This document shows, piece by piece, positions 16,526 through 54,380 of a stretch of DNA of 64,000 nt. The position numbers were made by a program, and so were the translations under genes. The stretch spans positions 14,042,633 to 14,106,632 of the forward strand of contig OZ037769.1 of NCBI GenBank assembly GCA_964035545.1, written 5' to 3'. Within the stretch, counting starts at the first letter, position 1. The number at the start of each line of letters is the position of its first letter. The DNA is from Bugula neritina (Eukaryota; Animalia; Bryozoa). A model generated the notes under the pieces. That model had not been told where the DNA came from. It saw only the letters and a list, made by a program, of their open reading frames with translations, and did not search any database.

Positions 16526-16556
<31 letters not shown>

Positions 16557-16573
16557 GAATCAATGAATCAATG

Positions 16574-16608
<35 letters not shown>

Positions 16609-21148: not shown

Positions 21149-22420
21149 GGTGCATCGCTATTGCTTCTGGCAGTTCTCCAACATGGTTTAGCTGACGAGG
21201 CAGCCAAAACTAAAGCGTTATTTAAAGAGTTGGACAAAGAAACCATTCCTCCAACAATAGTAACACAGCTAGAGACCATTGCTAAAAAACTTCATAGTCT
21301 TTACAAATATCGACCAGTTACTACGTTTAAACAATGGGTTGTTGCTACTCCTTTGGTCATCGATATGGGCACGGATGGCAAAGGTCCAATAAAACTAGAC
21401 AAAGGTTCAGTTATTAAAAAAAACCAGATATTCAGTAATGTCAGGAAGAACAACTACTACCGACGGCCTGACATTTGTGACAACAGCTGTTTGAACACAC
21501 TCAACACTCTCCCAACAAAAATCAAACGCTATCTTGGTGAAGCAAATCAAATTCATACTGAAATACAGATGCTTTACAGACATAACCACAACTTAATGAC
21601 AGATGTGACAAATAAAGATAAAGTTATTCTAGTATATTCCAGGTACATTCCTTGCTCCCAGAATCAAAATAGCCAGGGCGGCGTTTTCCTTGAATGTGCT
21701 GGTGAGATGGCGAACTTTGTTGTTAATAAGAATCCTCAGAAGAACAAGTTTATTGTTTTTTATGAAACTGTACATGACAAAGAGGAAACAGTCATACCAG
21801 TATCTCAGTTGTACATGCAACTTAGTGGTATTATGTCATTTAAGTACAACCCGACCACAAAAAAAATTAAAAAAGATTCCAACTTGCTAGACAAACATAG
21901 TTATAGTTACTTGAGAAAAAAGCCAACATTCCTGCATTTTGGTCGGCCTATTTTGAATGATAACTACAAGACAACAGTTACACAATTGTTCGTCGATTGC
22001 CTTGCTCGAAATCAGTTTATTAAAGTAGCCGGCACACAGCCTCCTAACAGCAAGGAAATTATTTTTGTAGCCACAAAATATCGGCTCTACAAGGCATTTT
22101 CTATGGATGAAGATAAACTGGCTGATCTTTATACAAAAGCTAAAAATTACAAAAAGAATAAGTTTCAAAAAACAGTAGTTGAAGGTTGTTATCAATATGC
22201 CATTAAAATGGCGGCGAATGTACCTAAAAAAAAGGCAATCATTGTGCCTAAAAAAGCTACAAACTATCTCAACTTTCGGGGAACGTCTTTAGCATCCTAT
22301 GATGTCCGGAAACCAAGATTTTTAGGAGATGAGCTACAATTTTGTTATAAATTCATGGACAAGTTAAATGAATATTTTGCTATTCGTAAAGGAATAACAT
22401 GCCAAGAAAAATGGAAATAA
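21149..22420 (+). CDS. Secreted AID/APOBEC-like (SNAD-like) zinc deaminase, copy 1, main exon
   Basis: Intact frame with QWVVATPL, CDNSC, HTE (21554-21562), YSRYIPC-x13-CAGEMANF, KFIVFYE, DCLARN. AATAAA signals at ~22668 and ~22685. Confidence 0.8.
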   Translation, partial: GASLLLLAVLQHGLADEAAKTKALFKELDKETIPPTIVTQLETIAKKLHSLYKYRPVTTFKQWVVATPLVIDMGTDGKGPIKLDKGSVIKKNQIFSNVRKNNYYRRPDICDNSCLNTLNTLPTKIKRYLGEANQIHTEIQMLYRHNHNLMTDVTNKDKVILVYSRYIPCSQNQNSQGGVFLECAGEMANFVVNKNPQKNKFIVFYETVHDKEETVIPVSQLYMQLSGIMSFKYNPTTKKIKKDSNLLDKHSYSYLRKKPTFLHFGRPILNDNYKTTVTQLFVDCLARNQFIKVAGTQPPNSKEIIFVATKYRLYKAFSMDEDKLADLYTKAKNYKKNKFQKTVVEGCYQYAIKMAANVPKKKAIIVPKKATNYLNFRGTSLASYDVRKPRFLGDELQFCYKFMDKLNEYFAIRKGITCQEKWK

Positions 22421-25670: not shown

Positions 25671-27827
25671 ATGAAAATCTAATCGTTACTATATTGGCGG
25701 CTTAGAAGTTGACTGTAAGTTTACAATCTTTTAGTATTACACAATTTTTTTCTTTACAAATAATTTATTACTGTTTTTAAACTAAAATTTAAAAATAATT
25801 GGATGGTAGAGTTATTGACAAAAAAAATGTAAAATGTTTGTGTTGAAAGTTGGTGCACAAAAACCTAGCTCACTAATATAAATATTTGACAAGTTCTTCT
25901 CAAATTGTTAAGGTTAGGGCAAATCACAGATTGTGATGACACAATAATTGCATACTAATAATTAGATGTTTAATTGAAACTCTCATTTTGAGTAATTAAA
26001 CTGTAAGTACATAATATGTTCACCTAGCAAAATTAAGTATTTAAAACTTTTTGATTACAGCAAAATTCAAAAGGGATGAAATATAATATAAGTATGCATG
26101 CATATAAAGTTATTAACATTTTTTTATTTATTCTGTTAAACTTGCACTGCAATATACTAGATGCTGTAAATAGCAAGAACCTATGTACTAATTTTTGTAT
26201 GAGGCAGTTTTTGGCAGAAATATAGCATAAATTTAACTTCAATTAGTTTTCATGCTCTTATTATTTTTTGAGCCAGTCGTTTAGTTTTAAGTTCAAAGCC
26301 AGTTGTGAGCTTGTGTTTTATATATTAAGTTTTGTAAATAATGTATATGAAGGGAAGTATCCCAAAAATATTTGTGAATAGTAGAAAAAGTACAATTGGC
26401 TAAATTTCAGCAAATAACTCATCTCTACTTGATAAAAAAGTATTTTATAATTCATTTTTAGCAACGCCTATTGTATAAACTCATAAACCAATATATATAT
26501 GCTCTCTGCCTCAATTTATATTATGCAAACTCTTTATTACAAAAAGCAGTCATCTTGGTGGTGCCAGTTTTGGGGTACAGAAATGCTGTTAGTGAAAAGA
26601 AAAGCCGAGGACCTTGTGAAAATTCTAGACAAAGAAAACCTTGACGCAGATATAAAGAAGGAGCTAGAGGCTGTTGCAGAAAAACTACTTATTAGCTAGT
26701 TTGATGATAGGCCTAATAAGGGAGCTGACCAATGGGTAGCAGCGACTACTTTAAAGGTCGACCTAGGAGCAGATGGCAATGGGCCAATGAAATTGTCTGC
26801 TGATGAACTCGTGCCAAGATATCAAGTGTTTACTAACATCAAAAGCTCCAATGATGATAGAGCTGTAATCTGTAACGACGACTGCATAGCGGAAATTAAA
26901 CACTTCCAACAAAATTAAAGAAAAGAATGTCAGGCGGTCATCAGATTCACACCAAAATTCAAATGCTTTATCGGAATGACCATAACCTTTTTGCAAATGC
27001 GAATGCTAAAGACAAAGTGATTTTAGTCTTCTCACACTACATTCCATGCGCACAAGATCAAGGAGAAGCTGGTGGGACATTTACAGAGTGTGCTGGTGAA
27101 TTGGCAAACTTTCTGGTGAATGATAATCCAAACAACAACAAATTTATTGTGTTTTGGGAGAGTACTCATCGAGCTAAAAGGACTGTGGTTCCAATTGCAC
27201 AGATGTATATGGAGCTCAGTGGCATTGCTTCATTTAATTATGACAAAAAAACAAAGAAGATAAAAAAAGATCCAAGCCACTTCAAGCGCCCAGAGTATTT
27301 TAGGAACAACTCTATGCTTATTAGACTAGGCCGTCCGCTGATGTCCAACGAGTTTAAATTCACAGAGACTCAGCTTTTGGTTGACTGCATAGCCCGAAAT
27401 GACTTTTTTATGGAAACAACTAATAATAGAATATGCAAAGAAATTCAGTTTCTAGCAGCAAAAAGACAACTTTACAAAGCATTCCCCAATGGGGGCTGGG
27501 AGCTATGGCACCATAAGAGACCGTCTTGCTAAAAATTACGGCAATGACAACGTTCCTTTCAAAAAGGCTGTTGTTGAAGCGTGTATTTTGTACGCAAACG
27601 CCATGTCTATGGATGAAAATAAAAAAAATTTACTTGTTCAGGACCATACCACGGATTATCTTAATTTCTACGGCAAGAGTGTGTTGAAGGATTATTGTCA
27701 AAATCCAAAATTTCCTCAAGATTATCTTCAATATTGCAACAGTTGTTTGGCAGCAGTTGAAAGATATTTTCAAATTCCTCAACAAAAGCAAATTCAATGT
27801 CAGCTGAAAAATCCTCGTCAACACTAA
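25671..27827 (+). pseudogene. Secreted AID/APOBEC-like deaminase, copy 2, pseudogene
   Basis: Full-length homology across several frames (KAVILVVPVLG.., DQWVAATTL, CNDDC, HTK, FSHYIPC-x13-CAGELANF, DCIARN, DYLNFYG). Lesions: frameshifts near 26598, 26900 and 27488; TAG at 26697-26699; catalytic Glu to Lys at 26954-26956; acceptor apparently CAG to CAA at 26540-26542. Tentative degenerate exon 1 at 25671-25684. Confidence 0.85.
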
Positions 27828-30800: not shown

Positions 30801-30853
30801 TGACATATATATATACACGACATCTATATTATATATCATGTGCATATTATATA

Positions 30854-30857
<4 letters not shown>

Positions 30858-30928
<71 letters not shown>

Positions 30929-31000
30929 TACATATATACATATACACATATACATATATACATATATACATATATACATATATACATGTATACATGTATA
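30858..31000. repeat. (TA)n / (TATACA)n microsatellite upstream of the copy 3 promoter
   Basis: Seen directly. Confidence 0.95.
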
Positions 31001-31228
31001 TATATTTTATTTTTTTTATTTACATTTTTTATGAAATCCTAACTTTTAACTATATAATTATTAATGATACCATCATTATACCAATACTGTAGACAAGCTT
31101 GTATAGCACAACGCCATGCTATTAACATGCACAACGCTAGAGTTATCGTTGAGCTATCTATAAAAGCAGTTGCTTTAGAGGTAATTTTACATTCTAGTTT
31201 TAAGTTATTCTGCAGGATTCATCGCAAA

Positions 31229-31249
31229 ATGACTAATACAAGACTTTTG
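31229..31249 (+). CDS. Initiator micro-exon of deaminase copy 3 (MTNTRLL)
   Basis: AAAATGACTAATACAAGACTTTTG|GTGAGT with TATAAAA at 31159. Splices in phase 0 to 32333, giving MTNTRLLVFLFTAIIIVHRGNS. Confidence 0.75.
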
Positions 31250-32332: not shown

Positions 32333-33787
32333 GTCTTTCTGTTCACCGCTATCATCATTGTGCATCGCGGTAATTCAACTCCCGAAGAAGAAAAGGCAAA
32401 AGCTGATGATTTGATGAAGGAGCTTGACAAACCGCATGCAGAGATTCGTGCAACTCTGATGACTCAGTTGAAAAGAATTGCAGGGGAGCTGAGGGCATAT
32501 AATGGAGAACGCCCAAACCTTGACTATCTTCAGTGGGTAGTGGCTACTCCATTAGATATAGAGAGAAATACTGAAAGTGGTGCAGAACCGTTGATATTAA
32601 CAAAGCAAGACGTCGAAGTCGACAAACATATTTACAGTAACTTCAAGAAAAGGGAAAATACACCAAAAAAGAGAAATGACAGAAAAAAATATTGCAATGC
32701 TAATTGCATTAAAGAAATAGAAAAACTTCCAACTACAATAAAAAGAGATAACAAAGAAATGGGTAATGGTCACGTGATACACACCGAAATACAAATGCTA
32801 TGCAGAAAGAAGGAAGACAACATATTACATGATGAAGCTAACAAGAACAAAGTAATACTAGTTTACTCAAAGTACATCCCATGTTCTCAAAATCAAAATT
32901 CTCAAGGTGGAACGTTTGTAGAATGTGCCGCAGAGTTGGCAAACTTTATGGCTAATCATAATCCGAACAAAAATAAATTGATTGTGTTTTATGAAACTCA
33001 ACACACTGCCGTGGATAACAACGATCGGGATGTACAAGTTTCATCTGTGGTTGGAGTGTCACAACTTTACATGGAGATGAGTGGCATAGTAGCTTTTAAG
33101 TACACGCCAGAGAATGAAGATGAATCAGGGGGTCCGAATCCACCGAGCGTTTTGCAGAGAGATCCTCAGCTTGTTGAAAAAGCTACATACTTTCGCAAAT
33201 ATCCAAAATTTATTAATTTGGGACGACCTCTTATAAACAATGATTATAAAGCAACTATTACCCAAATTTTCATTGACTGCCTAGCTCGAAACAACTTTGT
33301 AACCCCAAAGACTAGCAAAGAATCAACGCTTGATGTACAATTCATAACTGCTAAGCATTTTCTTTCTCTGATCCCTTATGCTGAAGAAAATGACATCGAC
33401 AAATTATTTGAAATGGCTAATCAAGCAGACAGAATAACAAATAAACAAGACGCATTCATTAAAGGGTGTTACACATTTGCAAAAGATATGTCAACAGATG
33501 ACATCAAAGGAGGCCTTATAGTTCCGGAGAAGGTGGGGGATTACCTCACTTTTAATGGCTACGCTACAAAATTGAATAAATCAAAGAAGATCAATGAGCT
33601 TTCTGTAAACAGTGAAAGAGACGCCTGTGAACCATTCCTAGCTGCTCTGAAGAAATTTTTTAAGCGTGAACGTTATTTGACACCTGTATGCACGGTGAAA
33701 GATTATTCTAATAGATATTCTAATGGCAGAGGTAACAGAAGCAAGGGTAGAAATGGGGGCAGAAGAGGACGCCGACGATATAAGTAG
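32333..33787 (+). CDS. Secreted AID/APOBEC-like zinc deaminase, copy 3, main exon; Arg/Gly-rich tail
   Basis: Acceptor TTTTAG|GTC. Intact ORF with HTEIQML, YSKYIPC-x13-CAAELANF, KLIVFYE, DCLARN; ends GRGNRSKGRNGGRRGRRRYK. Confidence 0.8.
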   Translation, partial: VFLFTAIIIVHRGNSTPEEEKAKADDLMKELDKPHAEIRATLMTQLKRIAGELRAYNGERPNLDYLQWVVATPLDIERNTESGAEPLILTKQDVEVDKHIYSNFKKRENTPKKRNDRKKYCNANCIKEIEKLPTTIKRDNKEMGNGHVIHTEIQMLCRKKEDNILHDEANKNKVILVYSKYIPCSQNQNSQGGTFVECAAELANFMANHNPNKNKLIVFYETQHTAVDNNDRDVQVSSVVGVSQLYMEMSGIVAFKYTPENEDESGGPNPPSVLQRDPQLVEKATYFRKYPKFINLGRPLINNDYKATITQIFIDCLARNNFVTPKTSKESTLDVQFITAKHFLSLIPYAEENDIDKLFEMANQADRITNKQDAFIKGCYTFAKDMSTDDIKGGLIVPEKVGDYLTFNGYATKLNKSKKINELSVNSERDACEPFLAALKKFFKRERYLTPVCTVKDYSNRYSNGRGNRSKGRNGGRRGRRRYK

Positions 33788-36700
33788 TTTGACATTTTAT
33801 ATTTGTCTAAAAGTGCTGTGCATGCTAATATCACAGATCAATAATGTCTTCTCCTAATAAAAACAGCTTGGTAAATAATATTTCTATATTATATCTAGCT
33901 GCACAGCAAAAAGTGTCCTTTCATAATACAAGCAACTTTGTATGTTTATGATTTGTTAATTCAATAAAAGTCTTGCAACTTCATTTGCTTGTTGTTTGTT
34001 TTTGTTATTTATAAGAAATAGGGTACATGCAAAGTTTGCAATAAATTAAGATTAGGACAAACACATAAAATGCATAAAATAAATAAAGTGTTACTGTAAT
34101 TAAAGAGAATTATAAAAGAAATAAACAATCATTTTATGATACAGATATGATTATCCATCCTATTGAAGCAGTAACACAAGTAAAACACTTATATATAGTT
34201 ATATTTAGCATAAATTACAAAGAATTAGAGTTAAGACTTTTTGTCTTACAGGAAATTTGTTTTAAATTAGATAAACTCACCATAAAAGCTAAATATTTTT
34301 AAAATTAAAATGTATGAGTGCCTATAGTTTTATTGCCTGATCAGTTGTGCTCATGTTGCGTAATAATTATATACTATATCATTAGAAATAGGTACAAAAA
34401 TATGCACCATTTTAAAACATCAACGATGCAATTATTCGTATGTACGTTAGACTTGTTTCTCTGCAAAAATGCAAAATAAAATGCACAGTAGTGTATATAA
34501 TGTAGATATAGGCTTAAATAATTTGCATATTTTATTATTATTGCTCTCTCTTTTTCTATTTCATGCTAAACGATTTCACTCACAGTATAATAAGTTATAA
34601 ATATAATTTCAAAGTTCTTCTTAATAGCTGTTCTGTTGACACTAAATAAAAACATTTTAAAAATATCTACAGCATATATACTTAAAAATCACCCTCAAGC
34701 GACTACATATATAGCATCAAATTAGGAACTGTAACAAAAATTGCTATGCATGGTTTTGTCATATAAGTAAAAGAAGGGATTCAGTAATTTATTACTGATG
34801 GAGTAGCTAAATTTTTAGACCACCTATATCTATATGTGAATAAAAAGGTAGTAAACAGTTTTCACTTCACGTTCTGGAAACTTATGGTTTTTGGTGCATA
34901 AATGGAGGCTGATGCTCATTTGCCGCTGAGTAAACTACTACCTATATAGGCTAGAAAAGCGCACAGCTAAAGGTTGTATTTTATCTTTATTTTAAGAACT
35001 GAAGGTTTAAACCAACTATATACTACCTACTTTTACCAACCAGGAAAACTGTGGGTCTATGCCTAGTAGAATATTGCTTACTATAATTTGCTTGCTGTAA
35101 ATAACTTAAAGTAACAGCTATTCTCTAATGTAACAGCTTGATAGCCAACAGCAGCCAGCTATATAGCTGAATCAAACTGAGTCGTTCTATAGCAATTTGC
35201 ATTGAATTATAGCAATAAAAACTAGTAGTAGAACAGGCATGACTCTGGTCCAGATTAAGTGTGGTCCTCAAGCAATGCATGGGACTCCTTATCTTTGAAT
35301 ACATGTGGGTTATTATATATTTGTACAAGAGAAAAGAGTAATTAACGGAATTTGACATAGTATTTTTCATTGATCTTACAAAATTTAAAACGAACCATGT
35401 TTTCAAAATTAGGAGAATACAACTCTAAAATATTTGAAGCATAATTTTAAGTCTGTTGTTACAAAATTATGTATCTAAAACTACAAGTGTACTGCACATT
35501 TTAAAATTATTTTACCTAATCTTTATATCACTAATTTGCAATTTAAACAATTCAGCCCTTTTAGAATAGTATTTTATTTTTAAATTATAAGTATTTAATG
35601 CAGACAGCCAAGATAACATGTTTATGCAAGTGGAAAAACTTGTCATAGTGCTTCTTATTTTTGATAATAATTTATAACCTGTTGTTTGAACCACAAAGAG
35701 CTAAAGCATTATCATCAATTTTGAGAATTCAAAATGGACTTTGGCTAATGAATTATTTGATTTGTGAGTAATATTTTGAAGTTATCCCGTCTTCCTTTAC
35801 AAAGACAGGATAACTCCAAAATATCATTTTTATGTCAACTTTTGTGTAAAATTTCATTTCACATGTGAGCTACTGTAGTAACTTTTAGATTTGTTTTTTC
35901 TTACTATTATTTAATCTAGCACATCAATATTCTTATTTCTTTTTGTTTTAAATTATTTTATTTTTTAAATTTTGTAAACTGGTCTTTGTCTGGAGTCGGG
36001 CATGTCGGAGTGTCGAAATGTACGAAGCCTCCCATGATATCATGGGTTAATTATAGTGTGGCTTGCTTTTTAAAATTTTCAACTGTATTTACTTTCAGAA
36101 AGTATTCTTAAGCCAATCAGTATTGTTCTGAGACTTAAATTTCAACAATTAATATTATGCAACTGTATGTGTAAAATGGTATCTTATTAATATATATTGT
36201 TCCTGATATTATTGAAAATAATGTTCGAAGCATCACTTATATATAATTTGCAGCAAGCAATAGATGAAAGATGTTAGTCATTTTCAACTTTTATAATAAT
36301 TATTTCAATTATAGCATGTATGCAACAATAAACCTTCATGAACATCATGTTCCTGACAGCTACTATTGTATACCATTTTGTAATTTCACTGAAGCAAACC
36401 AAGCACTGTACTGCAAACTAAGAAATGAGTGTTAAATTTGTTATAAGTAAAAATATATATACACATTTGAAGCTAGCATAATATATCTTTAGTTGGTATG
36501 CCATTTGCAAGTTTGTGCGACAAAATTTGATTGTTAGAGAGAATAGGTTTATTTAAACTACACGTACAATGGCCATTACGTGTGTAAATCAATGCTGCAA
36601 AGTGCATGAATAGTTTTAAAGCAAGGGAGGTGTTATTAAACTAGGTGAATGTGATTGTTGAATGAGTGCTCGTTCATCATTCAGTTTTACTTCCAGTGTC

Positions 36701-37300
36701 TGCTTTCATTAAATTAATATATTGCTGTTACTTATTCTTAGTCTGCTTGCTTAAGATTTGAATAAAAAACATGCTGCAAGAAAACACTATGTCCTTCTAT
36801 AGAACAATGTATTTGTACTCTGCATAAAATCAATACATTATAATGCAGCACATGATAGTTGTGCAGTAATCAATAGTATATATATACTTAGAACTTATTG
36901 TGTACATAACAACTTTTTTCATTATTATATTGTTGATAATGTTATTGAGAGAAATGCTCCATACGATATGCTGTAGAATTTATAGCAAGCAGTTTATAGC
37001 ATAGCTCAGTGAAGTCTACTATACACGCATGAAGGTACGAAAAGACTAAACAAGTGTGTAGTATGTAGAAACAAACTCCGTTTGCCTATATAATATGATA
37101 GTAGCTTATATGTATATTATATGTGGTAGCATGTATATTATAGCTGTTAGTATGTATACTATAACTATATGTGTGATAGCATAGATATTATAGCTGTTAT
37201 AGTATGTATGTATATTATCAGTGATAGTATGTATAATATACTGTATGTTGTAGCATATATGTTACAGGTATTAGCATGTATATTATAATTATGTGTTGTA

Positions 37301-37357
<57 letters not shown>

Positions 37358-38397
37358 GTGTTAGTATGTATATAATAATTATGTTGTATATAACACGTAT
37401 ATACTATATGTGTTAATATGTATATTATATGTGATCGTATATGTATTATATATATGGTTATAGAATCTATGCTACATTTGATAGAATGTATATAATAGAT
37501 TGGCTACACAACTTTTAGTGGAATGCGGATAATTTTCATTACAGTAAAGTTCACCATCTTAATAATCTCCTATAATAATATGCTTTTGCTTTCGTTATCG
37601 TTTAAATCAATAGTAAAATCCTAGTTTATTTTCTGCCGACATGCAGTGATATACGTGTGCATGGCTATTATAGCATATTGCATCATCCTTGCATCATCTT
37701 TGTGGCTATAGCTTAAAGTAATGGCATCGCGTAATGGCATCACCCTACATACTTATACAAGGTTATTACAGTCATCAACACATGTGTTGATTAAATTAAA
37801 GACGTTTGTATGCATCTTTCTGAAATAGAAAGTTTGTTTTAGATTATGTATAGAATTTTAGGACAACAAATTACTTACCATCATATTATTGTAATGTTTC
37901 AATAGGGGTTTGGCAATCTATATGTAATATTTTCTGACTTTCTAAATTATAAAAATTGTGCTTTAATAGATGTGTGTATATTTATCATCACAGACCATGA
38001 ATGTTATAGGAGAATAAATATAACAGAAGTTGCAAAAAAGCAGCTTTCCCTGAGTATCAGAAATCGCCTTATATGTCAGCCAATCACAGCAGAGAAAAAC
38101 ATAATGTTATAGCTAATATATAGCCATTAAAATACAAATAAAATTATAATGATTTAACCAAAACTTTCCAAGCAGTTTTTGGAGTAATGCTAATTAATTA
38201 TACCATCAAAATAAATTATTTAATACAATGATGAAAACACAAATGGTAAAAAGCTTTATTTACTTCTCTAGTATACCATAGAACTTTCCGCCATGTAGCA
38301 CGTATCAACTTCTGCATGACATGCAATATTTGTACAATATGAAAAAAAGTTAATTTTGACTTATAGGAAGTATTGTACTTATTTATGTGTGTTTTAG

Positions 38398-39819
38398 ATC
38401 TCAGTGTTGATCACTGTAGCCATTGTACGCCGCTGTGTTACACATTCTGAAGAAAATGCAAAAGCTAATGACTTGATGAAGGAGCTTGACAAACGGCATG
38501 CAGAGATTCGTGCAACTCTGATGACTCAGTTGAAAAGAATTGCTGGTGAGCTGAGAAGATATTATCATCAACGTCCAAACAAAGAATATAAGCAGTGGGT
38601 AGTCGCTACTCCATTAATTATAACGAGAAATACTGAAAATGGTAAGGACTCTTTGACTTTGACAGCGCAAAGTGTGGAAGAAGATAAACATATTTACAGC
38701 AATTTCAAAAGACTTCATAATCAAAATGATGAATTAAGAAGAAAATATTGTGATGAGAATTGTATTCAACGAATAGAAGCACTTACAACTAAAATAAAGA
38801 AACATCAGAGAAAACAAATGAGTGAGAACAATATAGTACACACAGAAATGCAAATGCTGTACAGAGATAAAGTTGACAATATACTACACAATAATGCTAA
38901 CAAAGGCAAAATAATACTAGTTTACTCTAAATACATTCCGTGTTCTCAAAATCAAAATTCAAATGGTGGAACGTTTGTGGAATGTGCCGGGGAGTTGGCA
39001 AACTTTATGGCTAATAACAATCCCAATGGAAATAAGCTAATCGTGTTTTACGAAACTAAACATGAAGCAGTAAATAAACACGATGGAGTTAATGTTTCAT
39101 CCGTACTTGGAGTTTCCCAACTTTACATGGAGATGAGTGACATAGTCGCGTTTAAATACACCCCAGAAGATAGAAGCAATGAGAGTAAATTAAAAAGAGA
39201 TCCTTTGCTTGTTGACATGGCCACATATTTTCGTGAGTACCCAATGTTTCTCCATTTGGGTAGACCTCTTATGAATAAAAAATGCAAAGCAACTGTTACC
39301 CAAATATTCATTGACTGCCTAGCTCGAAATAGGTTTGTAAAGTTGACAACGAATCTGATTGAAAACTCTAAAGTACGATTCATAGCTGTTAAATATTTTC
39401 TTTCTGAACTTTCACATGCAAAGGAAAATAATCTTGAAGATTTGGTTACTGCAGCTAAGAACGGTAAAAATCCAACTGATCAACAACGTGCTATTGTTGG
39501 AGGATGCCATGTTTTTGCCAAAGAAATGATTGAAGATAGTATCAAGAAACAGTACATTAAAACTGAGCGGAAGAAAACTGAATATCTCAGTTTTGATGGG
39601 ACTGCTGCAAAAACTACTGAATATTTTGATAAAGATGAGAAAGAAACTTGTAGAGCATATCTCAAAGTTCTAAATGAGCATTTTAATAGAAAAACTAGTA
39701 AAACAAATGTGTGTTTGGTAGAGCCACTTTTTAATGGTGATGATTATGAGAGGGATAAAGAGAATATTATGAGTGATAAAAAAACTGAAAATAATAATCA
39801 TATCTATGACGAATTATAG
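38398..39819 (+). CDS. Secreted AID/APOBEC-like zinc deaminase, copy 4, main exon (intact ORF but own exon 1/promoter deleted)
   Basis: Acceptor TTTTAG|ATC; HTEMQML, YSKYIPC-x13-CAGELANF; ends IYDEL*. Upstream DNA lacks the segment homologous to ~44748-46165. Confidence 0.7.
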   Translation: MSVLITVAIVRRCVTHSEENAKANDLMKELDKRHAEIRATLMTQLKRIAGELRRYYHQRPNKEYKQWVVATPLIITRNTENGKDSLTLTAQSVEEDKHIYSNFKRLHNQNDELRRKYCDENCIQRIEALTTKIKKHQRKQMSENNIVHTEMQMLYRDKVDNILHNNANKGKIILVYSKYIPCSQNQNSNGGTFVECAGELANFMANNNPNGNKLIVFYETKHEAVNKHDGVNVSSVLGVSQLYMEMSDIVAFKYTPEDRSNESKLKRDPLLVDMATYFREYPMFLHLGRPLMNKKCKATVTQIFIDCLARNRFVKLTTNLIENSKVRFIAVKYFLSELSHAKENNLEDLVTAAKNGKNPTDQQRAIVGGCHVFAKEMIEDSIKKQYIKTERKKTEYLSFDGTAAKTTEYFDKDEKETCRAYLKVLNEHFNRKTSKTNVCLVEPLFNGDDYERDKENIMSDKKTENNNHIYDEL

Positions 39820-42800
39820 AGCGGAGGTGGAGGAGATTACGTAATCAATAAAAATCATTTTGAATATCGAACTATAAAAATGGTTACTATATATAAGTGT
39901 TATACAGCGGAAAGAATAAAAATTACAGATAGAATAATAACTCTGAGATAAAGATTATATAGAATCAATGCTGGATATAACAAGTGTAACAACGATTATC
40001 AAGAAGGAAGAAATAGAAAATAATTTTAAAAAATTGCTTAACTTATAGACCTCGTCATGATCTTGAAAAATTAAGAAGATACAAAAAAGCAAAAGTTTAA
40101 AGAAATTTCTTGCAAATTATATTAGGGTATAAAAAAACTCTTTCTATAGTACAAGCTGTTTTGTTTGCTCATTATAATATACATGATTGTTTAACAATAG
40201 ACATTTTGCAATTTTAAATACTTGTATTTTTTAAAGTTTTTTTTATTCACTAATTTATTTTTATTTTTCATCACTAATTAGATTGTCATATAATATAAGT
40301 TCTATAATATGCAAATAAATAAAAATCATGACAATGAAACCAACTCAGTTTTTGTACAAGTTATTGAAACATAGCAGTATGTTGAAAACATCAACATTTG
40401 TTTAATCACAAAAATAGCATAAAACATGTCATAAAAACTAAAGGTATTACAATATATTGTAAAAAATTGTCTGAAAATTCAACATTTCTATATAATATCC
40501 AACTTGGTTGATAAAATGTGTAAGAAGTTTTGAAACAACTTTTGCTCTGCATTTTACAATACATTCCAATGCTATTTCTTGGTTATTTTCATTATCATAT
40601 TCAGCTAAATTGTCCTTATAAGATTTTAAATCATGCATGCATACAAACTATTAATTGTTTTTCATTAGAAGGCTTATTGGATATAATATAATAATTTACA
40701 AAGAAGAAGTGATCAAATTGAATTAATTTCTTCAATCTATCTTTTCAACAAGATATTAATATACAGCTCTTTGTACATCTCAGCTATAATTGTTTGGTAT
40801 TCTGTGATCATCTATATAAAAGTAGTATATATATGCAGCATGTCTATGTGTTTATTTACAATTAATAGCCAATCACATGCTGTTATTAATCAGCAGTTGT
40901 AACAAAACTATGTGCAGATGGAGTTTCACAAATTATAAAAAAAATTTTAACTGTTTGAAACATTTACTCAGCACAAAAGCCAGTAACAATATTATAAACT
41001 TCAAAATATTCAACTCTATAAGTTTAGAGCTGTGAATTATAGACTGCCCAATGCAGACGATCCCGACCATTGCTATCAAAGACTTTGAACTTTAGAATTA
41101 AATGATTATAATGTAGAAGAACAGTAGCTATAATAGTGCATTATAGTATTTTAAAAAATTAGACATTTTATGAATTTGGCTGCAGTATAAACTGTTAGAG
41201 CTGTATATATAGCTTCAATGAGTCATAAAATATGCACATGCATGCATGGCGTCAATTATAACACACCTGCACGCATGAATTCACATGAAACCAAAATAAA
41301 TGCAACTATTAGCATCAAATATTATTTTCTTAATTTTGAATGCTTTTCAAATGAAGTTGTCTATCTGAACTGAAACCGAGTTAGCAGCTATCTAAAAGCA
41401 AGAAACATTAGCTACGGTCCTATAGCTACATAACAGCTTAGCTATAGTTGATATATTACAGCAGAGCCTTCCTTGAAATATTGTCAAGGCTTAGCTATGT
41501 TTGAGCCATTAATTACCCATCACCCTCATACAATACCAGTACACTACTGAATACAAAAAACACCCAAGCGTCATAATAATTCAGCTGATATAATAATTCT
41601 GCTCATAATAATTCTGCTCATAATAATTCTGCTCATAAGATCTGATGATAACTTTCAGAGAGCAGAAGAAAAAGATAATATCAATACTGTGAGCATCATC
41701 AAGTTCATTGGAACACAACTCCTACTCACTGTCTCTAGATTCAGACAAATTCAGGTGCTGTAAAGATAAATCACCAAGTGCAGCAATGCAATACGCATGT
41801 GTTGAATGTGTTGATTATAGGATATAATCTTCCACAGTGATGAAAATAAACATTCATATAATACCATTACTTATCAATGCTAATAATAGTAATTGTCTTC
41901 TCTCTGTTTGAATACTTTATCATATTACACACAATACTTGTCCTGTTCTTTCTCTTCTTCTTTATACGTAAAGTACAGCATGTCTTGTCAACTACAGCTC
42001 TACTGATTTTATCTCAATAACTAACATAAATAAGATTACCATCAGCCTCCAACTCAACAAAATGGTAAAGACAGCTATAATTACTGCTATGACAACAAGA
42101 CGTTAATTAACCTCAAAAATTATCATCATAATCAACAGCCTATTGTCTCAGGCTACAGAAAGAAGCAGAAAAGCTACCAATTGCTTCACTAAAATGATGT
42201 CAAGATCAATTTGAAGCCAAAAACTCTTAGACCATATTTATTGCAATAATTCACATCTACTTATGTTATATTGGTTGGTTACTGCACTATAAATGCATAC
42301 ATTAAATACCATTTAATTAGTATAAGCTCAAAAATTGGACATGAAGAAGCAAATTTTTTATTATCATGTGCATAATAATTTTATGTGTTTTAGAAAACAG
42401 GATGTGAAACGTGAAACGTTATGCTAAACGCAACGCTGAATGCTTAATAATTACTGTTGGATATTCATTACGTTATGCTGCTTTTACAACTTGACATATA
42501 ATTATGCTATGTGATAACTTTACAGCCTGCATGAGCTGTTATATAAATGCTGGTTTTCTCATATATTCATAAAAAAACGTTACTTCTAATTTTCAAGTCT
42601 GTTGTTGTGTATTTAAAAGTGTGTACACATTTTAAAATCATTTCATCTAATCTTCATATGAGTAATTTGCAATTTAAATAATATAGCCCTTTTGGAGTAC
42701 TATTCTATTTTTAAATTAGTATAATATATAATGCATACAGCCAAAATAATATGTTTATGTAAGTGAGTGGAAAAACTTGTCGTAATTCTTTTTATTTTTG

Positions 42801-45244
42801 ATAATAATTTATAACCTGTTGCTTAAACCACAAAGAGCTAAAAAATAATCCTCAACTTAGAGAATTCAAAATGGATTTTGGCTAATGAATTATCTGAATT
42901 AGTGATGGAAGACAGGATGACTCCAAAATTTCATTTCTATGTCTGCTTTTGTGTAAAATTTCATTTCACATGTAAGCTACTCTGGTGAATTTTAGAGTTA
43001 TCTTTTCTTACTGTTGTTTAATCTAGCACATATCAATATTCTTATTCCTTTTTGTTTTGAAGTTTTCGATTTGATAAACTGGTCTTCATTTGAAGTCGAG
43101 TCAGAACTTTGACACTCCGTACTCAGAATGTCAAACACTCATATGATATTGTGGGTTAATTATAGTGTGGCTTGCTTTTTCAAATTTTCAGCTGCATTTA
43201 CTTTTGAAAAGTATTTTTAAGCTACTCGGTTTTGTTCCGAGACTCAAATTTCAACAATCAATATTATGCAATGGTTTAGAATTAATGCGCTTTACTTTGC
43301 ACGTCTTTGAGCCTGTATGTGTAGAATGATATTGTTAACATGATATTATTGAAAATAATGTTCGAAGCATCACTTATATTATATAATTTGAAGCATGCAA
43401 TAGATGGAGGGTGTTCGTCTTTTTTAACTTTCATAATAATTATTACAAGTATATAGCATGTATGCAACAATAAACCTGACTATCATGCTCCTGACAGCTA
43501 TACTATTGCATACAAAGTTGTAGTTTTACTGAAGCACTATGCAAGCACTGTACTGAAAATTAAGATATGAGTGGTAAATTTTCTATTATAGGTGAAAATA
43601 TACACACATTTGAAGCTAGCATGTAATATATCTTTAGTATGCCCTTTGCAAGTTTGTGGGACAACATTTGATTGTTTGAGAGAATAGGTTTATTTAAACT
43701 ACACGTATGTATCAGTATAATATATACAATTGCCATTACGTGTGTAAATCAAAGCTGCAAAGTGCATGAATAGTTTTCTATAAGTAAAGGATGGTGTTAT
43801 TAAACTAGGTGAATGTTAATTCCAAATGAGCACTCGTCTATTCGATCATCTAGTTTGACTTTTAGTGGCTGCTTTCGTGAAATCAATCTATTGCTGTTAC
43901 TTATTCTTAGTCTGCTTGGGGTTGATGATTGAGATTTAGACAAAAAACATGCTGCAAGAACACATAATATCTTTCTATAGAACAATACATATTTGTACTC
44001 TGCATAAAATCAATACATGATACGCTGTTAGTTGTGCAGTAATCAATGGTATATATATACTTAAAACTTATTGTGTACATAACAACTTTTTTTCATTATT
44101 ATATTGTTGATAATGTTATTGAGAGAAATGCTCCATATGATATGCCGTAGAATATACAGCAAGCAGTTTATAGCATAGCTCAGTGAAGTCTACTACATGC
44201 ATGAAGGTACGAAAAGACTAAACAAATGTGTTATAGTATGTAGAAACAAAATCCTTTAGGCTATACATGATAGTAGCATATATGTATATTATATATTGTG
44301 ATAGCGTATAGAGGTGTTAGTATATGTATATAATAAATTTGTTGTATATAACATGTATACTATAAGTGTTAGTATGTATATTATATATGATAGCATATGT
44401 ATTATAATATATATATATATGGTTATAGGATCTATTACATTTGATAGAATGTATAATAGATTGGCTACACAACTGTTAGTGGAATGCAGATAATTTTCAT
44501 TACAGTAAAGTTCACCATCTCATTAACCTCCTATAATAATATGCTGTTGCTTCCGTTATCTTTCAATTCAATAGTAAAATCCTAGTTTATTTTCTGCTGA
44601 CAGTGGTATCATACTTGTGCATGGCTATATAGCGTATTGCATCACTATTGCATCATCTTTGTGGCTATAGCTTAAAGTAATGACATCACCCTACATACTT
44701 ATACAAGTAAGCCAGTTGAAGGTTATTACTACAGTCATCAACACATGTTTTTAGACACTGATTTGTAAAGGTGTATACAGCCAATTTAAAGAATGATATA
44801 GTTATCTGCATCCCATAGTGTGACAACAGAGATAACAAAGGGTAAATAAATGGTTAACAAAGGGTTAAAAAATGGTTAACAAAGGGTTGTTAATAAAGTT
44901 ACACCGAATCAAACATTTGCACCCTGTGCAGACTGCAGACTCATTATTGCCACTGAGAAGTAGATACATAGTTTGTGTGTTACTTTTGGTGCTTATATGT
45001 ATATTATATGTGATAGTATGCATCTCTTATATGTGATAGTAGTTATAATGTATTGTATATACTATCGCACATACGATGTATTATATGCAATAGTATATAT
45101 GTTGTATATTAATAGTACGTGTATAATTATTTTATGTGTTATTATGGATTTTATGTGTGTTAATATGTATGTTCTATGTGATAGTATGTATGTTATATAT
45201 GTATTATGTGTGCATGGGTGTGTTATAACATTGTATATAATGCA

Positions 45245-45500
45245 CATATTATCATACACAATAAACATATGCTTATATATAATATACATATGCTTATGCA
45301 TAATAAACATATGCTTATACATAACATACATACGCTTATACATAATACACATATGTTTATACATAATATATATATGCTTATACGTAATACACATATGCTT
45401 ATATATAATATACATATGCTTATGCATAATAAGCATATGCTTATACATAACATACAAATACTTATGCATAATATACTTATGCATATACATATATATAATG
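45245..45500 (+). repeat. ~21-bp AT-rich minisatellite (CATAATAAACATATGCTTATA) upstream of the copy 5 promoter
   Basis: About 11 degenerate tandem units; source of the spurious I/Y/C/H-rich ORFs. Confidence 0.85.
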
Positions 45501-45695
45501 TATACAATATTATATACACAATCAAATATTTTAACTCTATATATAATACGCTCATTTTATTAGACTGTACTAGGAGCAACACCCAAGCATGGCGCCACAC
45601 CACACAAGAATATTGGTAAACTAAGTATATAAGCAGACAGCAGGAGGCGCTTTTTCACTTCTTAGTTCAGAGGCTTTCTAAGAAGTTCATCTAAA

Positions 45696-45716
45696 ATGAC
45701 TCATCTAAGACTTTTG
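45696..45716 (+). CDS. Initiator micro-exon of deaminase copy 5 (MTHLRLL)
   Basis: AAAATGACTCATCTAAGACTTTTG|GTAAGT, homologous to copy 3 exon 1; TATATAA at 45626. Confidence 0.8.
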
Positions 45717-46787
45717 GTAAGTGGAGAAAATATATATTTAATGCTGATGTACTCTAAATTATATTTTAGGAAAGTAGCTATAGCTCAAAGTACTCATTAT
45801 ATGAGTTTAGTTTATGCATGGAAAGTTCCAATGATGTTTTATTTATGAATACGATGTTTTTATATGCAACTTTAGTTTACAATCAGCTATTTATTACTTC
45901 TAACAAAATTATAATGTAGGTATAGTTATAAGAGCCAACTTTATTATGAGTAAATTTGGAAGTCCATTCTTTAAAGTGTTTTGGGGACAATTGACTATAA
46001 TTTGAATGGTCTGTAAAATGTAGTATTTTGTATATTATGTGTACAACAGGTAGCAGCAGTTCAAAAGTAGCTATCTTAAACTTAGTCAGTAATATAAAAA
46101 GTTTTCGCAACATAATTCCTGATCTATACACCCCAATTTTAGTTTTGAAAATGGTAACAAAATTGTGTGTCTTTAAATTAAAGACGTTTGTATTCATCTC
46201 TCTGAAATAGATATTTTGTTTTAGATTATGTATAGAATTTTAGGACAACAAATTACGTACCATCATATTATTGTATTAATGTTTCAATAGGAGTTTGGCA
46301 ATCTATGTAATATTTTTTGACTTTCTAAATTATAAAAATTGTGCTTTAATATGATGTGTGTATTTATCATCACAGACCATGAATGTTATAGGAGAATAAA
46401 TATAACAGAATTAATTACGTTGCAAAAAAGCAGCTTTCCCTGAGTATCAAAAATCGCCTTATATGTCAGCCAATCACAACAGAGAAAAACATAATGTTAT
46501 AGCTAACATATAGCCATTAAAATACAAATAAAATTATTATGATTTAACCAAAACTTTCCAAGCAGTTTTTGGAGTAATGCTAATTAATTATACCATCAAA
46601 ATAAATTATTTAATACAATGATGAAAACACAAATGTTGTGAAGCTTTATTTACTTCTTTAGTATACCATAGAACGTTAGGTCATGTAGCACATATCAACT
46701 TCTGCATGACATGCAATATTTTTACAATATGAAAAAAAGTTAATTTTGACTTATACGAAGTATTGTACTTATTTATGTGTGTTTTAG

Positions 46788-48209
46788 ATCTCAGTGTTGA
46801 TCACTGTAGCCATTGTACGCCGCTGTGTTACACATCTTGAAGAAAATGCAAAAGCTAATGACTTGATGAAGGAGCTTGACAAACCGCATGCAGAGATTCG
46901 TGCAACTCTGATGACTCAGTTGAAAAGAATTGCTGGTGAGCTGAGTGAGTATTATAATCAACGTCCAAACCGTGCCTTTACTCAGTGGGTAGTGGCTACT
47001 CCATTGAATATAAAGAGAAATACTGAAAATGGTAAGGACTCTTTGACTTTGACAGCGCAAAGTGTGGAAGAAGACAAACATATTTACAGCAATTTCAAAA
47101 GACTTCATAATCAAAATGATGAATTAAGAAGAAAATATTGTGATAATGACTGTATTCAGCAAATAGAAACACTTACAACTAAAATAAAAAAACATCCGTG
47201 GAAACAAATAGGTGAAAACAATATAGTACACACAGAAATGCAAATGCTGTACAGAGATAAAGTTGACAATATACTACATAATGAAGCTAATAAAAATAAA
47301 GTAATACTAGTTTACTCAAAGTATATTCCGTGTTCTCAAAATCAAAATTCAAATGGTGGAACGTTTGTGGAATGTGCCGGGGAGTTGGCAAACTTTATGG
47401 CTAATAACAATCCCAATGGAAATAAGCTAATCGTGTTTTATGAAACTAAACATGAAGCAGTAAATAAACACGATGGAGTTAATGTTTCATCCGTACTTGG
47501 AGTTTCCCAACTTTACATGGAGATGAGTGGCATAGTCGCGTTTAAATACACCCCAGAAGATAGAAGCAATGAGAGTAAATTAAAAAGAGATCCTTTGCTT
47601 GTTGACATGGCCACATATTTTCGTGAGTACCCAATGTTTCTCTATCTGGGTAGACCTCTTATGAATAAAGAATGCAAAGCAACTGTTACCCAAATATTCA
47701 TTGACTGCCTAGCTCGAAATAGGTTTGTAAAGTTGACAACGAATCTGATTGAAAACTCTAAAGTACGATTCATAGCTGTTAAATATTTTCTTTCTGAACT
47801 TTCACATGCAAAGGAAAATAATCTTGGAGATTTGGTTACTGCAGCTAAGAACGGTAAAAATCCAACTGATCAACAACGTGCTATTGTTGAAGGATGCCAT
47901 GTTTTTGCCAAAGAAATGCTTGAAGATAGTATCAAGAAACAGTACATTAAAACTGAGCAGAAGGAAAATGATTATCTCAGATTTGATGGAACTGCTGCAA
48001 AAACTACTGAATATTTTGATCAAGATGAGAAAGAAACTTGTAGAGCATATCTCAAAGTTCTAAATGAGCATTTTAATAGAAAAACTAGTGAAAAAAATGT
48101 GTGTTTGGTAGAGCCACTTTTTAATGGTGATGATTATGAAAGGAATAAAGAGAATAGTATGAATGGTAAAAAAATTGAAAATAATAACCAAATCTATGAC
48201 GAATTATAG
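46788..48209 (+). CDS. Secreted AID/APOBEC-like zinc deaminase, copy 5, main exon
   Basis: Recent duplicate of copy 4. Signal MTHLRLLISVLITVAIVRRCVT; intact HTE/PC-x13-C; ends IYDEL*. Confidence 0.8.
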   Translation: MSVLITVAIVRRCVTHLEENAKANDLMKELDKPHAEIRATLMTQLKRIAGELSEYYNQRPNRAFTQWVVATPLNIKRNTENGKDSLTLTAQSVEEDKHIYSNFKRLHNQNDELRRKYCDNDCIQQIETLTTKIKKHPWKQIGENNIVHTEMQMLYRDKVDNILHNEANKNKVILVYSKYIPCSQNQNSNGGTFVECAGELANFMANNNPNGNKLIVFYETKHEAVNKHDGVNVSSVLGVSQLYMEMSGIVAFKYTPEDRSNESKLKRDPLLVDMATYFREYPMFLYLGRPLMNKECKATVTQIFIDCLARNRFVKLTTNLIENSKVRFIAVKYFLSELSHAKENNLGDLVTAAKNGKNPTDQQRAIVEGCHVFAKEMLEDSIKKQYIKTEQKENDYLRFDGTAAKTTEYFDQDEKETCRAYLKVLNEHFNRKTSEKNVCLVEPLFNGDDYERNKENSMNGKKIENNNQIYDEL

Positions 48210-49360
48210 AGTGGAGGTGGAGGAGATTACGTAATCAATAAAAATCATTCTGAATATCGAACTATAAACAATGGCTACTATATATATTCGTGATGATAAG
48301 TGTTATACAGCGGAAAGAATAAAAATTACAGATAGAATAATAACTCTGAGATAAAGATTATATAGAATCAATGCTGGATATAACAAGTGTAACAACGATT
48401 ATCAAGAAGGAAGAAATAGAAAATAATTTTAAAAAATTGCTTAACTTATAGACCTCGTCATGATCTTGAAAAATTAAGAAGATACAAAAAAGCAAAAGTT
48501 TAAAGAAATTTCTTGCAAATTATATTAGGGTATAAAAAAACTCTTTCTATAGTACAAGCTGTTTTGTTTGCTCATTATATACATGATTGTTTAACAATAG
48601 ACATTTTGCAATTTTAAATACTTGTATTTTTTAAAGTTTTTTTATTCACTAATTTATTTTTATTTTTCATCACTAATTAGATTGTCATATAATATAAGTT
48701 CTATAATATGCAAATAAATAAAAATCATGACAATGAAACCAACTCAGTTTTTGTACAAGTTATTGAAACATAGCAGTATGTTGAAAACATCAACATTTGT
48801 TTAATCACAAAAATAGCATAAAACATGTCATAAAGACTAAAGGTATTATATAATATATTGTAGAAAATTGTCTGAAAATTCAGCACTTCTAATATCAAAC
48901 TTGGTTGATAAAATGTGCAAGGAGTCTTGAAACAACTTTTGCTCTGCATTTTACAACACATTCTGATGCTATTTTTTGTTATTTTCATTATATTCAGCTA
49001 AATTGTCCCTATAAGATTCCAAATCATGCATGCATACAAACAATTAAGTGTTTTTCATTAGAAGGCTTATTGGGTATATAATAATTTACAAAGAAGAAGT
49101 GATCAAATTGAATTAATTTCTTCAATCCATTTTCTTTTCAACAAAATTTTAATATACAGCTCTTTGTGCATATCTCAGCTACAATTGTTTGGTATTCTGT
49201 GATCATCTATATAAAAGTAGTATATATATGCAGCATGTCTATGTGTTTATTTACAATTAATAGCCAATCACATGCTGTTATTAATCAGCAATTGCAACAA
49301 AACTATGTGCAGATGGAGTTTCAAACATTATAAAAAAAGTTTTAAGTGTTTGAAACATTT

Positions 49361-49713
49361 AGTCTAGGGCCACATGGTGCGTATTTTCGCATGCGAAAAT
49401 TGAAATCATGGGTAGCAAAGGTGTCCACTGTACGCGTTAAGAAAACATTCGCACTTGTCGCTCAGCATTCTCAACGCAAGTGCGAATCGTCTCTGTCGTC
49501 GTCACCTAATTGGCTGGTAGTTATTCAGCAAACCCAATTTCTTTATTTTAGTGCTACATTCCAGTAAATTGCGTTTTATTGAAAGCGAGCGCGATTTAAA
49601 AATGAAAGCTTTATATATATCACTCAACGCATCACTGTCATTACAGTGGACACCTTTGCTACTTGTGATTTCAATTTTCGCATGCGAAAATACGCAACGT
49701 GTGGCCCTAGGCT
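49361..49713. mobile_element. MITE (non-autonomous DNA transposon), 353 bp with ~72-bp terminal inverted repeats
   Basis: 49361-49432 (AGTCTAGGGCCACA..GGTGTCCACTGTA) is the imperfect inverse of 49642-49713. The empty site GAAACATTTACTCAGCAC is present in the paralogous unit at ~40957-40974. Confidence 0.9.
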
Positions 49714-50868
49714 TATACTCAGCACAAAATCTAGTAACAATCTTATAAACTTCAGAATATTCAATTCTATTTGTTTAGAGCTGTGAATTATAGACTGCCC
49801 AATGCAGACAATCTCGACCATTGCTATCAGATACTTTAAACTTTAGAATTAAATGATTATAATGTAGAAGAATATAGTAGCTACAATAGTACATTATAAT
49901 ATTTTAAAAAATTAGACATTTTATGAATTTGGCTGCAGTATAAACTTTTAGAGCAGTATAAACTGGTAATAGAGCAGTATTATATATAGCGTCAATGAGT
50001 CATAAAATATGCACACGCATGGCGTCAATTATAACACACCTGCACACATGAAACCAAAATAAGTGCAACTATTTATAGCATCAAATATTATTTTCTTAAT
50101 TTTCAATGCTTTTTAAAAGAAGTTGTCTATCTAAACTGAAACCAAGTTAAAAGCTATCTAAAAGCAAGAAACATTAGCTACGGTCCTATAGCTACATAAC
50201 AGCTTAGCTATAGTTGATAATTATATTACAGCTAGCAGAGCCTTCTTTGAAATATTAGCAAGGCTTAGCTATATTTGAGCAATTAATTACTCATCACCCT
50301 CATACAACACTGGTACACTACTTAATACAAAAACACCCAAGCGTCATAATAATTCTGCTCATATAAAACCTGATGATAAATCTCGTGGAGAAGAAAAAAA
50401 AAATAATATTGATACTGTGAGTATCAATAAGTCCATTGGTCCACAACTCCGACTCGCTGTCTCTAGACTTATAAAAATCAAGGTGATAAAAATAAACCAG
50501 CAATGCAATATACAGGATATAATTGAATGTTTTGATAAGATACATTCTTCTATAGTGATGAAAATAAACATTCATATAATATTATTATTTATCAATGCTA
50601 ATAATAGTAATTGTCTTCTCTCTGTTTGAATACTTTATTATATCACTCACAACACTTTCCTGTTCTCTCTCTTCTTATTTATACGTAAAATACAGAAGTC
50701 TTGTCAACTACAACTCTACTGATTTTATCTCAATAATTAACATAAATAAGACGACCATCAGCCTCCAACTCAAAAAAAGGTCAAGACAGCTATAATTACT
50801 GCTATATGGTGACAAGACTTTACACCTGAAAAATTATCATCATTATCAACAGCCGATTGACTCGGGCT

Positions 50869-50871
<3 letters not shown>

Positions 50872-53885: not shown

Positions 53886-53955
<70 letters not shown>

Positions 53956-54218
53956 ACACTAATTGCAGTCACATGATTTTTTTGCACGAAATCTGTATTA
54001 TCATATAACTAAATCTAAATAATTTATCCCTAAATCATGTTTTGTGCTTAGTTGAACTAAGAAACATAAAGCCTGATTTCTAGCAGCAGCAAAATATAAA
54101 AACCTAAATAGCACTTGCAGTCACATGTCACTTAATACTAGGAATATATATATATATATATATATAAATAGCCATATAATTATTAGATTGGTTTTTGTTT
54201 GTTTGTTTGTTTGTTTAT

Positions 54219-54380
<162 letters not shown>

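Follow-up and report, generated by a model that had tools for sequence, protein, structure and literature searches.

The 64-kb window analysed here, the whole stretch of 64,000 nucleotides (nt) from position 14,042,633 to 14,106,632 of contig OZ037769.1 in the Bugula neritina assembly GCA_964035545.1, is AT-rich, with a G+C content of 25-35%, and carries a two-exon gene in seven tandem copies, all on the same strand (Table 1; coordinates count from the first base of the window). The main subject of this report is the fourth copy, a 5'-truncated tandem duplicate without promoter, initiator exon or the first 456 nt of its intron. The closest database relatives of these genes are unnamed metagenome proteins and three B. 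neritina 'hypothetical proteins', EB796_007868-70 (16 matches). In an 18-sequence tree every copy in the window has a Bugula-type sequence as its partner; copies 4 and 5 form a sister pair (100/99), to which P0006 of B. neritina is the outgroup.

The intact units share one plan. A TATA box, which reads TATAWAAGCAG in copies 3 and 5, lies about 70 nt 5' of the ATG; exon 1, only 15-24 nt long, ends in phase 0 at a GTRAGT donor; and an intron of about 1 kb leads to a single long exon 2. Exon 1 encodes the methionine and six further residues, and exon 2 the remainder of the putative signal peptide together with a protein of about 470 residues. In copy 5 the two join as MTHLRLL-ISVLITVAIVRRC, with a hydrophobic core judged by eye; this N-terminal stretch, encoded across the two exons, has the look of a signal peptide. 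Long (AT)n stretches and AT-rich tandem arrays of 20-23-mers are found a few hundred bases 5' of the promoters of several units (arrays at 30805-31005, 37096-37497, 44278-44440, 44980-45520 and 53886-54376), one of them having been lost with the head of copy 4.

Table 1. Gene copies, landmarks of copy 4 and divergence between the copy 4 unit (A) and the copy 5 unit (B)
Feature	Position in window	Strand	Details
Copy 1, exon 1	20305-20319		probable
Copy 1	21158-22378		
Copy 2	26601-27463		truncated, frameshifted; old pseudogene
Copy 3, exon 1	31229-31249	+	MTNTRLL, phase 0, donor GTGAGT; nearest leader 5' of copy 4, 7148 nt from acceptor
Copy 3, exon 2	32333-33787		
Unit A, upstream part	35442-37790	+	homologous to unit B 42587-44753; stops at deletion junction
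Deletion junction	37780-37799	+	ACATGT/GTTGA/TTAAATTAA; left side is unit B to 44748-44753, right side is unit B from 46173
Copy 4, intron 1 remnant	37791-38397	+	607 nt versus last 615 nt of copy 5 intron; polypyrimidine tract and AG acceptor intact
Copy 4, exon 2	38398-39819	+	473 open codons and TAG; part of putative signal-peptide core, deaminase-fold domain, C-terminal YDEL
Copy 4, first in-frame ATG	38476-38478	+	codon 27
Copy 4, codon 248	39139-39141	+	GAC (Asp) in copy 4, GGC (Gly) in copy 5
Copy 4, AATAAA	39847-39852	+	28 nt past stop, spacing as in copy 5
Identical run, A and B	39885-40435	+	547 aligned bases, unit B 48276-48834; length reached in 0 of 5000 permutations
Segment missing from copy 4	unit B 44754-46172	+	21-mer tandem array, TATA box, exon 1 and donor, first 456 of 1071 intron nt
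Copy 5, TATA box	45626-45636	+	TATATAAGCAG
Copy 5, exon 1	45696-45716	+	ATGACTCATCTAAGACTTTTG, MTHLRLL, donor GTAAGT
Copy 5, exon 2	46788-48209	+	undamaged sister gene; protein 91% identical to that of copy 4
MITE-like element, unit B	49360-49715		356 nt; inverted repeats of ~70 nt at its ends, 30 nt of them identical; once in window
Copy 6, exon 1	55196-55216		MAYLRLC
Copy 6	56231-57577		
Copy 7, exon 1	60780-60803		
Copy 7	61618-62952		
Substitution rate, A versus B	35442-36846		12-25%
Substitution rate, A versus B	36847-37092		6%
Substitution rate, A versus B	37486-37790		9%
Substitution rate, A versus B	intron remnant		4.5%, 4 indel events (95.5% identity)
Substitution rate, A versus B	coding sequence		5.0%
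Substitution rate, A versus B	3' flank to 40964		2.9%
Substitution rate, A versus B	40965-41435		4.6-7.5%
Substitution rate, A versus B	beyond 41435		10-18%

Self-comparison divides the middle of the array into unit A (35442-42157), which holds copy 4, and unit B (42587-50871), which holds copy 5. BLAST aligns 37323-37788 with 44278-44751 and 37791-40969 with 46173-49364, and MAFFT opens a single 1419-nt gap in copy 4 opposite 44754-46172 of unit B. Both alignments bear out an initial annotation, made from the sequence alone, which had proposed that promoter and exon 1 were deleted from copy 4; its figures of ~44747 and ~46166 for the joined points and ~1.4 kb for the loss are correct to within a few bases. 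As the segment carries the leader exon common to copies 3, 5 and 6, it was lost from copy 4 and not acquired by unit B, and copy 4 is the product of duplication and not a retrocopy, since a remnant of the intron is present, both flanks align with unit B and copies 4 and 5 are sisters. At the junction the letters run ACATGT-GTTGA-TTAAATT, and TGT(G) was seen by eye on both sides in unit B; to judge by these letters, a microhomology-mediated deletion via TGT(G) is plausible, with the exact base of the break not assignable because unit B is a paralogue of copy 4's unit, not its ancestor. The difference between copy 4 and unit B is a structural one between paralogues, to which the question of chance does not apply.

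Beyond the junction little has changed. The last 60 nt of the intron differ from those of copy 5 at one position, the acceptor AG is present, and the 473 codons of exon 2 contain no stop, so that the uninterrupted open reading frame (ORF) and the splice acceptor of the first description both stand, as does its placing of the first in-frame ATG at 38476. The replacement of SGI by SDI, also reported there, was confirmed as a GAC codon; of the 18 family members aligned, only copy 4 (G248D) lacks glycine at this position. Each factual statement of the initial annotation was borne out.

That another initiator exon might lie between 33.8 and 38.4 kb had been named as the finding that would overturn the interpretation, and the interval 33788-38397 was therefore scanned for an ATG followed by an open phase-0 frame of at most 120 nt and a GTRAGW donor. 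This sequence-based scan, which could miss weak or unconventional exons, gave no candidate there; in five control intervals (copies 1, 3, 5, 6 and 7) it returned nine rows and recovered the true leader in all five units, each with a TATA box 61-76 nt upstream. The leader motif AGACTYTKKGTRAGT, common to copies 3, 5 and 6, has five matches in the window (three at the true exons and two elsewhere on the minus strand) and none upstream of copy 4, and TATAWAAGCAG with at most one mismatch has 24 matches in the window, none of them in 33788-38397. The missing 1419-nt segment has no second copy within the window, and an ORF scan of the region upstream of copy 4 and between copies 3 and 5 found no gene-like ORF of at least 70 amino acids. 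Spliced-leader (SL) trans-splicing could in principle cap a message at copy 4's orphan acceptor; we know of no report of it in bryozoans.

The coding sequences of copies 4 and 5 show 21.5 synonymous and 49.5 non-synonymous differences, a ratio of non-synonymous to synonymous rates (dN/dS) of 0.56, while other copy pairs for which dS is defined give 0.17-0.41, with dS near saturation. When these 71 nucleotide differences are polarised by copies 3 and 6, copy 4 is derived at 19 and copy 5 at 6, with 46 undecidable (19 v 6, binomial p 0.015), and the branch leading to copy 4 in the tree is 1.6 times as long as that leading to copy 5 (0.056 and 0.034). No insertion or deletion (indel) event is found in 1419 nt of coding sequence, against 15 in the 1734 nt of intron and 3' flank of the same tract. 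Homopolymer runs are about 2-3 times commoner in that non-coding DNA than in the coding sequence, but even with this taken into account, drift of copy 4 over the whole 5% divergence should have left several indels. The absence of coding indels and the open frame therefore indicate that coding constraint was still acting on both copies while they acquired most of their differences, and hence that the loss of the head is probably recent; relaxation in copy 4 since that loss has left a mild sign at most. A scan of metagenome contigs for related loci, as a source of outgroup DNA, found none.

Such a frame behind such an acceptor is also what would be seen if exon 2 of copy 4 were an alternative terminal exon, joined to exon 1 of copy 3 (31229-31249) by splicing over 7148 nt to 38398. 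The transcript would read through copy 3, and the product would be secreted, with the nearly normal signal peptide MTNTRLL followed by ISVLITVAIV... As the initial annotation had it, exon 1 of copy 3 ends at 31249 in phase 0; exon 2 of copy 4 is in the same phase, MTNTRLL is nearly identical to the MTHLRLL of copy 5, and the intact acceptor and polypyrimidine tract, the open frame and a dN/dS below 1 all speak for this use. However, copy 3 has its own acceptor, its own exon 2 and an AATAAA 69 nt past its stop, a further 15 AATAAA and 7 ATTAAA hexamers lie en route, and G248D and the longer branch of copy 4 point to relaxed constraint. Splicing from the leader of copy 3 is thus unlikely, though it fares better than the other alternatives.

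The divergence between units A and B is far from even along their length (Table 1), and the pattern reads as an old duplication with a younger, homogenised centre, inside which the deletion junction lies. The 131 differences in this centre are strongly clustered, the densest cluster placing 14 of them in 50 nt (0 of 5000 permutations); units A and B have therefore kept exchanging sequence in patches. The 547-nt identical run looks like a very recent conversion tract: the stretches beside it differ by 5-7%, and an inverted-repeat or transposon structure, sought as an explanation of the identical block, was not found. A second cluster, at 38887-38934 (codons 164-179), comprises 11 nucleotide differences between copies 4 and 5 in 48 nt, of which seven are synonymous. 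Copy 4's version is matched along its full length by none of the other copies in the window, which points to micro-conversion from an allele or paralogue lying outside it. Two further ideas were discarded. A 356-nt gap at 40964/40965 had the appearance of a tract boundary and proved to be the insertion in unit B of an element resembling a miniature inverted-repeat transposable element (MITE), for which unit A has the empty site CATTTA/CTCAGC, with TA as the possible target duplication. The idea that copy 4 was 'born headless', through transfer into unit A of 3.2 kb of promoterless unit B sequence whose edge would be the junction, was rejected because divergence is low to the left of the junction as well as to its right (6-9% at 36847-37790, 4.6-7.5% at 40965-41435, versus 12-25% farther away).

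The history of copy 4 most probably ran as follows. An old tandem duplication gave units A and B, and gene conversion later homogenised their central part, from ~36.85 to 41.4 kb in unit A. A deletion of 1419 nt within the homogenised zone, probably between short TGT(G) repeats, then removed the head of copy 4. Deprived of TATA box, start codon and donor, exon 2 would normally be neither transcribed nor translated into a secreted protein, and its frame would be intact merely for lack of time since the head was lost, while recent exchange with copy 5 has wiped out some of the differences between the two.

Exchange of this kind raises the question whether copy 4 is kept as a silent, promoterless donor for germline or somatic conversion into the expressed copy 5. 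The identical run and the 14-in-50-nt cluster, the contrast between substitution rates of 3-9% in the centre of the units and 12-25% in their outer flanks, and the lack of promoter and leader, by analogy with pseudo-V donors, would all suit that role. Patchy conversion is usual for tandem paralogues, however, and needs no selected role; a single donor at 95% identity offers little diversity; and the deletion, if polymorphic, is too young for a maintained function. Of the donor proposed in the first description, exchange with copy 5 is thus upheld by the clustered differences, but neither a direction of transfer, which is not readable from this clustering, nor a selected role is borne out, and we consider a donor role distinctly improbable. 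A broader proposal, in which exon-2 bodies serve as cassettes and the promoterless copy 4 is either spliced to an upstream leader or retained as a conversion donor, seems to us rather unlikely. If true, it would mean that one promoter serves several variant secreted mutator-like deaminases, diversifying an immune effector family of an invertebrate.

Further evidence comes from contigs of public sequencing runs, compared over 37470-41500. One run (X1), of unrecorded type and available as contigs only, contains 71% of the sampled words of 37300-40300 and may be the assembly's own sample. One of its contigs matches copy 4 to 37788 and then continues for 26 letters identical to 44750-44775 of unit B. 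Because the flank in unit B has two small indels relative to copy 4 in the preceding 30 nt, this contig was judged, by eye, not to be simply unit B; it would represent the flank of copy 4 with an undeleted continuation, and would stem either from another haplotype or from an additional paralogue beyond the window. Two more X1 contigs depart from the assembled sequence, at 39969 and 41006, and run on into sequence absent from the window. These departures are a hint, at the level of contig sequence, that the locus is structurally polymorphic and that the deletion may be segregating. Other apparent signals in X1 were set aside: all 29 'other letters' on copy 4 are copy 5's letters (copy 5 contigs at 97%) and not variants, and the contig depth of ~59-65 on copy 4, against ~107 on unit B and 106 upstream, which might have indicated hemizygosity, is not copy number. 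Bins 40035-40304 have no X1 contig cover. Two other runs of unrecorded type (X2 and X3) hold pieces of 30-50 nt over the parts conserved between paralogues and a few scraps of intron and flank. One short X2 contig shares 30 nt with the part coding for LKRIAGEL (38526-38555) and then continues as family-like coding sequence which, by eye, corresponds to none of the copies in the window, so that there are additional paralogues elsewhere.

The same contigs bear on whether the junction is an assembly artefact, or confined to a single haplotype, with the real copy 4 still possessing its head. The X1 contig that leaves copy 4 does so into the very start of the 'deleted' segment, and together with the two that depart further along it suggests at least one other haplotype or individual with a different structure. 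Assembly collapse, on the other hand, yields joins inside long repeats, and at this junction the two joined points are non-homologous and share at most a few bases of microhomology; its right side has no reported loose end, and the bins to its left and right both have X1 contig cover, the bridging contig itself not being among those listed. Were an undeleted haplotype also present, the deletion would in any case be polymorphic rather than false, and we hold an artefactual or single-haplotype junction to be decidedly doubtful. Least probable is a transcript arising in the intron remnant and translated from the ATG at 38476 into a signal-less intracellular deaminase-like protein: that ATG is in frame and lies 5' of the entire deaminase-fold domain (model residues 54-273, see below) and the AT-rich remnant contains TATA-like strings, but it has no family-type promoter motif, the copy 5 intron is 95.5% identical, leaving nothing promoter-like peculiar to copy 4, and the conserved cysteines and the C-terminal YDEL are features suited to the secretory pathway.

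Among the four options put forward in the initial annotation, a very young pseudogene thus gives the best fit, as it accommodates the missing promoter and exon 1, G248D, the longer branch and the lack of coding decay; the isoform from 38476 has only its ATG to recommend it. Our own reading of the sequence is that copy 4 is a young pseudogene in a birth-and-death array, presumably unexpressed and possibly segregating, to which we assign a probability of about 0.6. Several observations weigh against it. The frame has neither stop nor frameshift, and random substitution, when simulated, spared the frame in only 29% of trials with 35 changes and in 10% with 71; continued use of copy 4 would account for the intact frame equally well, and this is the chief point. 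The acceptor region differs from that of copy 5 at only 1 of 60 nt, the AATAAA has been kept, and copy 3 offers a leader in the same phase that encodes nearly the same peptide. The dN/dS between copies 4 and 5 lies below 1 (Fisher p 0.02-0.05), a sign of selection that is not attributable to one branch. Amino-acid relative-rate tests with five outgroups (11 v 5, 13 v 11, 12 v 7, 12 v 9 and 13 v 5) all lean the same way, none of them significantly, and majority polarisation of the 42 amino-acid differences, at 22 v 15 with 5 undecided, is not significant either. Lastly, the hint of polymorphism comes from one contig, fitted by eye, in a run that is perhaps the assembly's own sample and so not independent.

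Read as a young pseudogene, copy 4 presents a textbook birth-and-death step, a gene seen just after the loss of its head and before the decay of its frame. It is also an annotation hazard, as an ORF finder or homology pipeline would label it an intact gene, and it provides a natural marker for dating and tracking gene conversion in the array. The event itself is of a known kind, 5' head loss being ordinary in such arrays, and the small, lineage-restricted gene family that surrounds it is the more novel object.

Elsewhere in the array, copy 2 (26601-27532) is a decayed pseudogene in which the frame of similarity to copy 5 shifts at 26900 and the similarity ends at about residue 339, a stretch of 210 amino acids being all that remains open. 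Upstream of copy 1 (16377-20076) lies a local tandem duplication at 76-78% identity, in which 16377-17042 pairs with 18555-19300 and 17773-18542 with 19306-20076.

The nature of the family was approached through an AlphaFold model of copy 5, with a predicted local distance difference test score (pLDDT) of 78.4 and a predicted template modelling score (pTM) of 0.81. VIA-align matches residues 54-273 of the model to APOBEC3A (8fij_B) with Z 9.2 and a root-mean-square deviation of 4.2 over 150 aligned residues; the same region scores Z 7.7-9.2 against APOBEC3A, 3G, 3B and AID and Z 8.2-8.8 against RibD and dCMP deaminases. The Z 9.2 for APOBEC3A and the Z 8.2-8.8 barely exceed the method's stated background of Z 7-8. 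The top rows from Foldseek are all deaminases, the matches being weak (best E 0.013). In the 18-sequence alignment H148-T-E150 and P181-C...C are invariant or nearly so, with 13 residues between the two cysteines, where classical members have 2-4. No Pfam model passes its threshold in any of the 18 members, the sub-threshold matches being to NAD1 in 3 of them (best E 0.0025, its 16 bits falling short of the 27 required), to SNAD4 in 2, and to SNAD1, APOBEC_N and APOBEC4 in a single member each. Among 1.84 billion representative proteins a profile search returned 41 relatives at E <=0.001, and among 28 distant relatives compared with Pfam none rises above threshold, 2 having sub-threshold SNAD4 or APOBEC3 matches. 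A profile search of PDB sequences gave no match, and a language-model atlas offered SNAD1/SNAD2 and other APOBEC clusters as leads, with scores of at most 0.86. From predicted fold and motif the family appears to be one of secreted AID/APOBEC-like deaminases, without assignment to a named clade. The clade of copies 4 and 5 ends in YDEL (39805-39816 and 48195-48206) and the Bugula relatives P0003 and P0006 in HDEL, an ending that resembles a retrieval signal of the endoplasmic reticulum (ER), while the clade of copy 3 ends in a basic tail of the GRRGRRRYK type; the family may thus have split into ER-resident and secreted branches.

Three known systems invite comparison. The donors of chicken immunoglobulin conversion are pseudo-V segments without promoter or leader. 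Copy 4 is like them in lacking both, in lying in cis beside a presumably expressed paralogue and in exchanging sequence with it; unlike them, it is a single copy and not a bank, its exchange is germline, and there is no sign of somatic or programmed conversion. With the AID/APOBEC-like deaminases the family shares the HxE...PC...C zinc-deaminase motif, an APOBEC-like fold as predicted, an N-terminal leader that looks hydrophobic by eye and lineage-specific tandem expansion, and it differs from them in the 13-residue spacing between the PC motif and the second cysteine, in a helical C-terminal extension of about 200 residues and in the (Y/H)DEL ending of the copy 4/5 clade.

Closest to copy 4 itself are non-processed, 5'-truncated duplicate pseudogenes within tandem arrays of fast-evolving immune-type genes, an example being the AID/APOBEC-like pseudogene in the array of Nematostella. 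For AID/APOBEC-like families Krishnan et al. (2018, PMC5889660) report tandem arrays, individuals that differ in copy number, a pseudogene within an array and paralogues of mosaic make-up; the words 'bryozoa' and 'Bugula' do not occur in the main text of that paper, and a literature search, judged by title and abstract, gave no published account of this family in bryozoans. The points of resemblance are a same-strand tandem array with lineage-specific expansion, a second, decayed pseudogene in that array (copy 2), mosaic paralogues and hints of structural differences between haplotypes or individuals. Where copy 4 departs from a case of the Nematostella type is in its frame, which is undamaged: its sole lesions are the loss of its head and one radical substitution.

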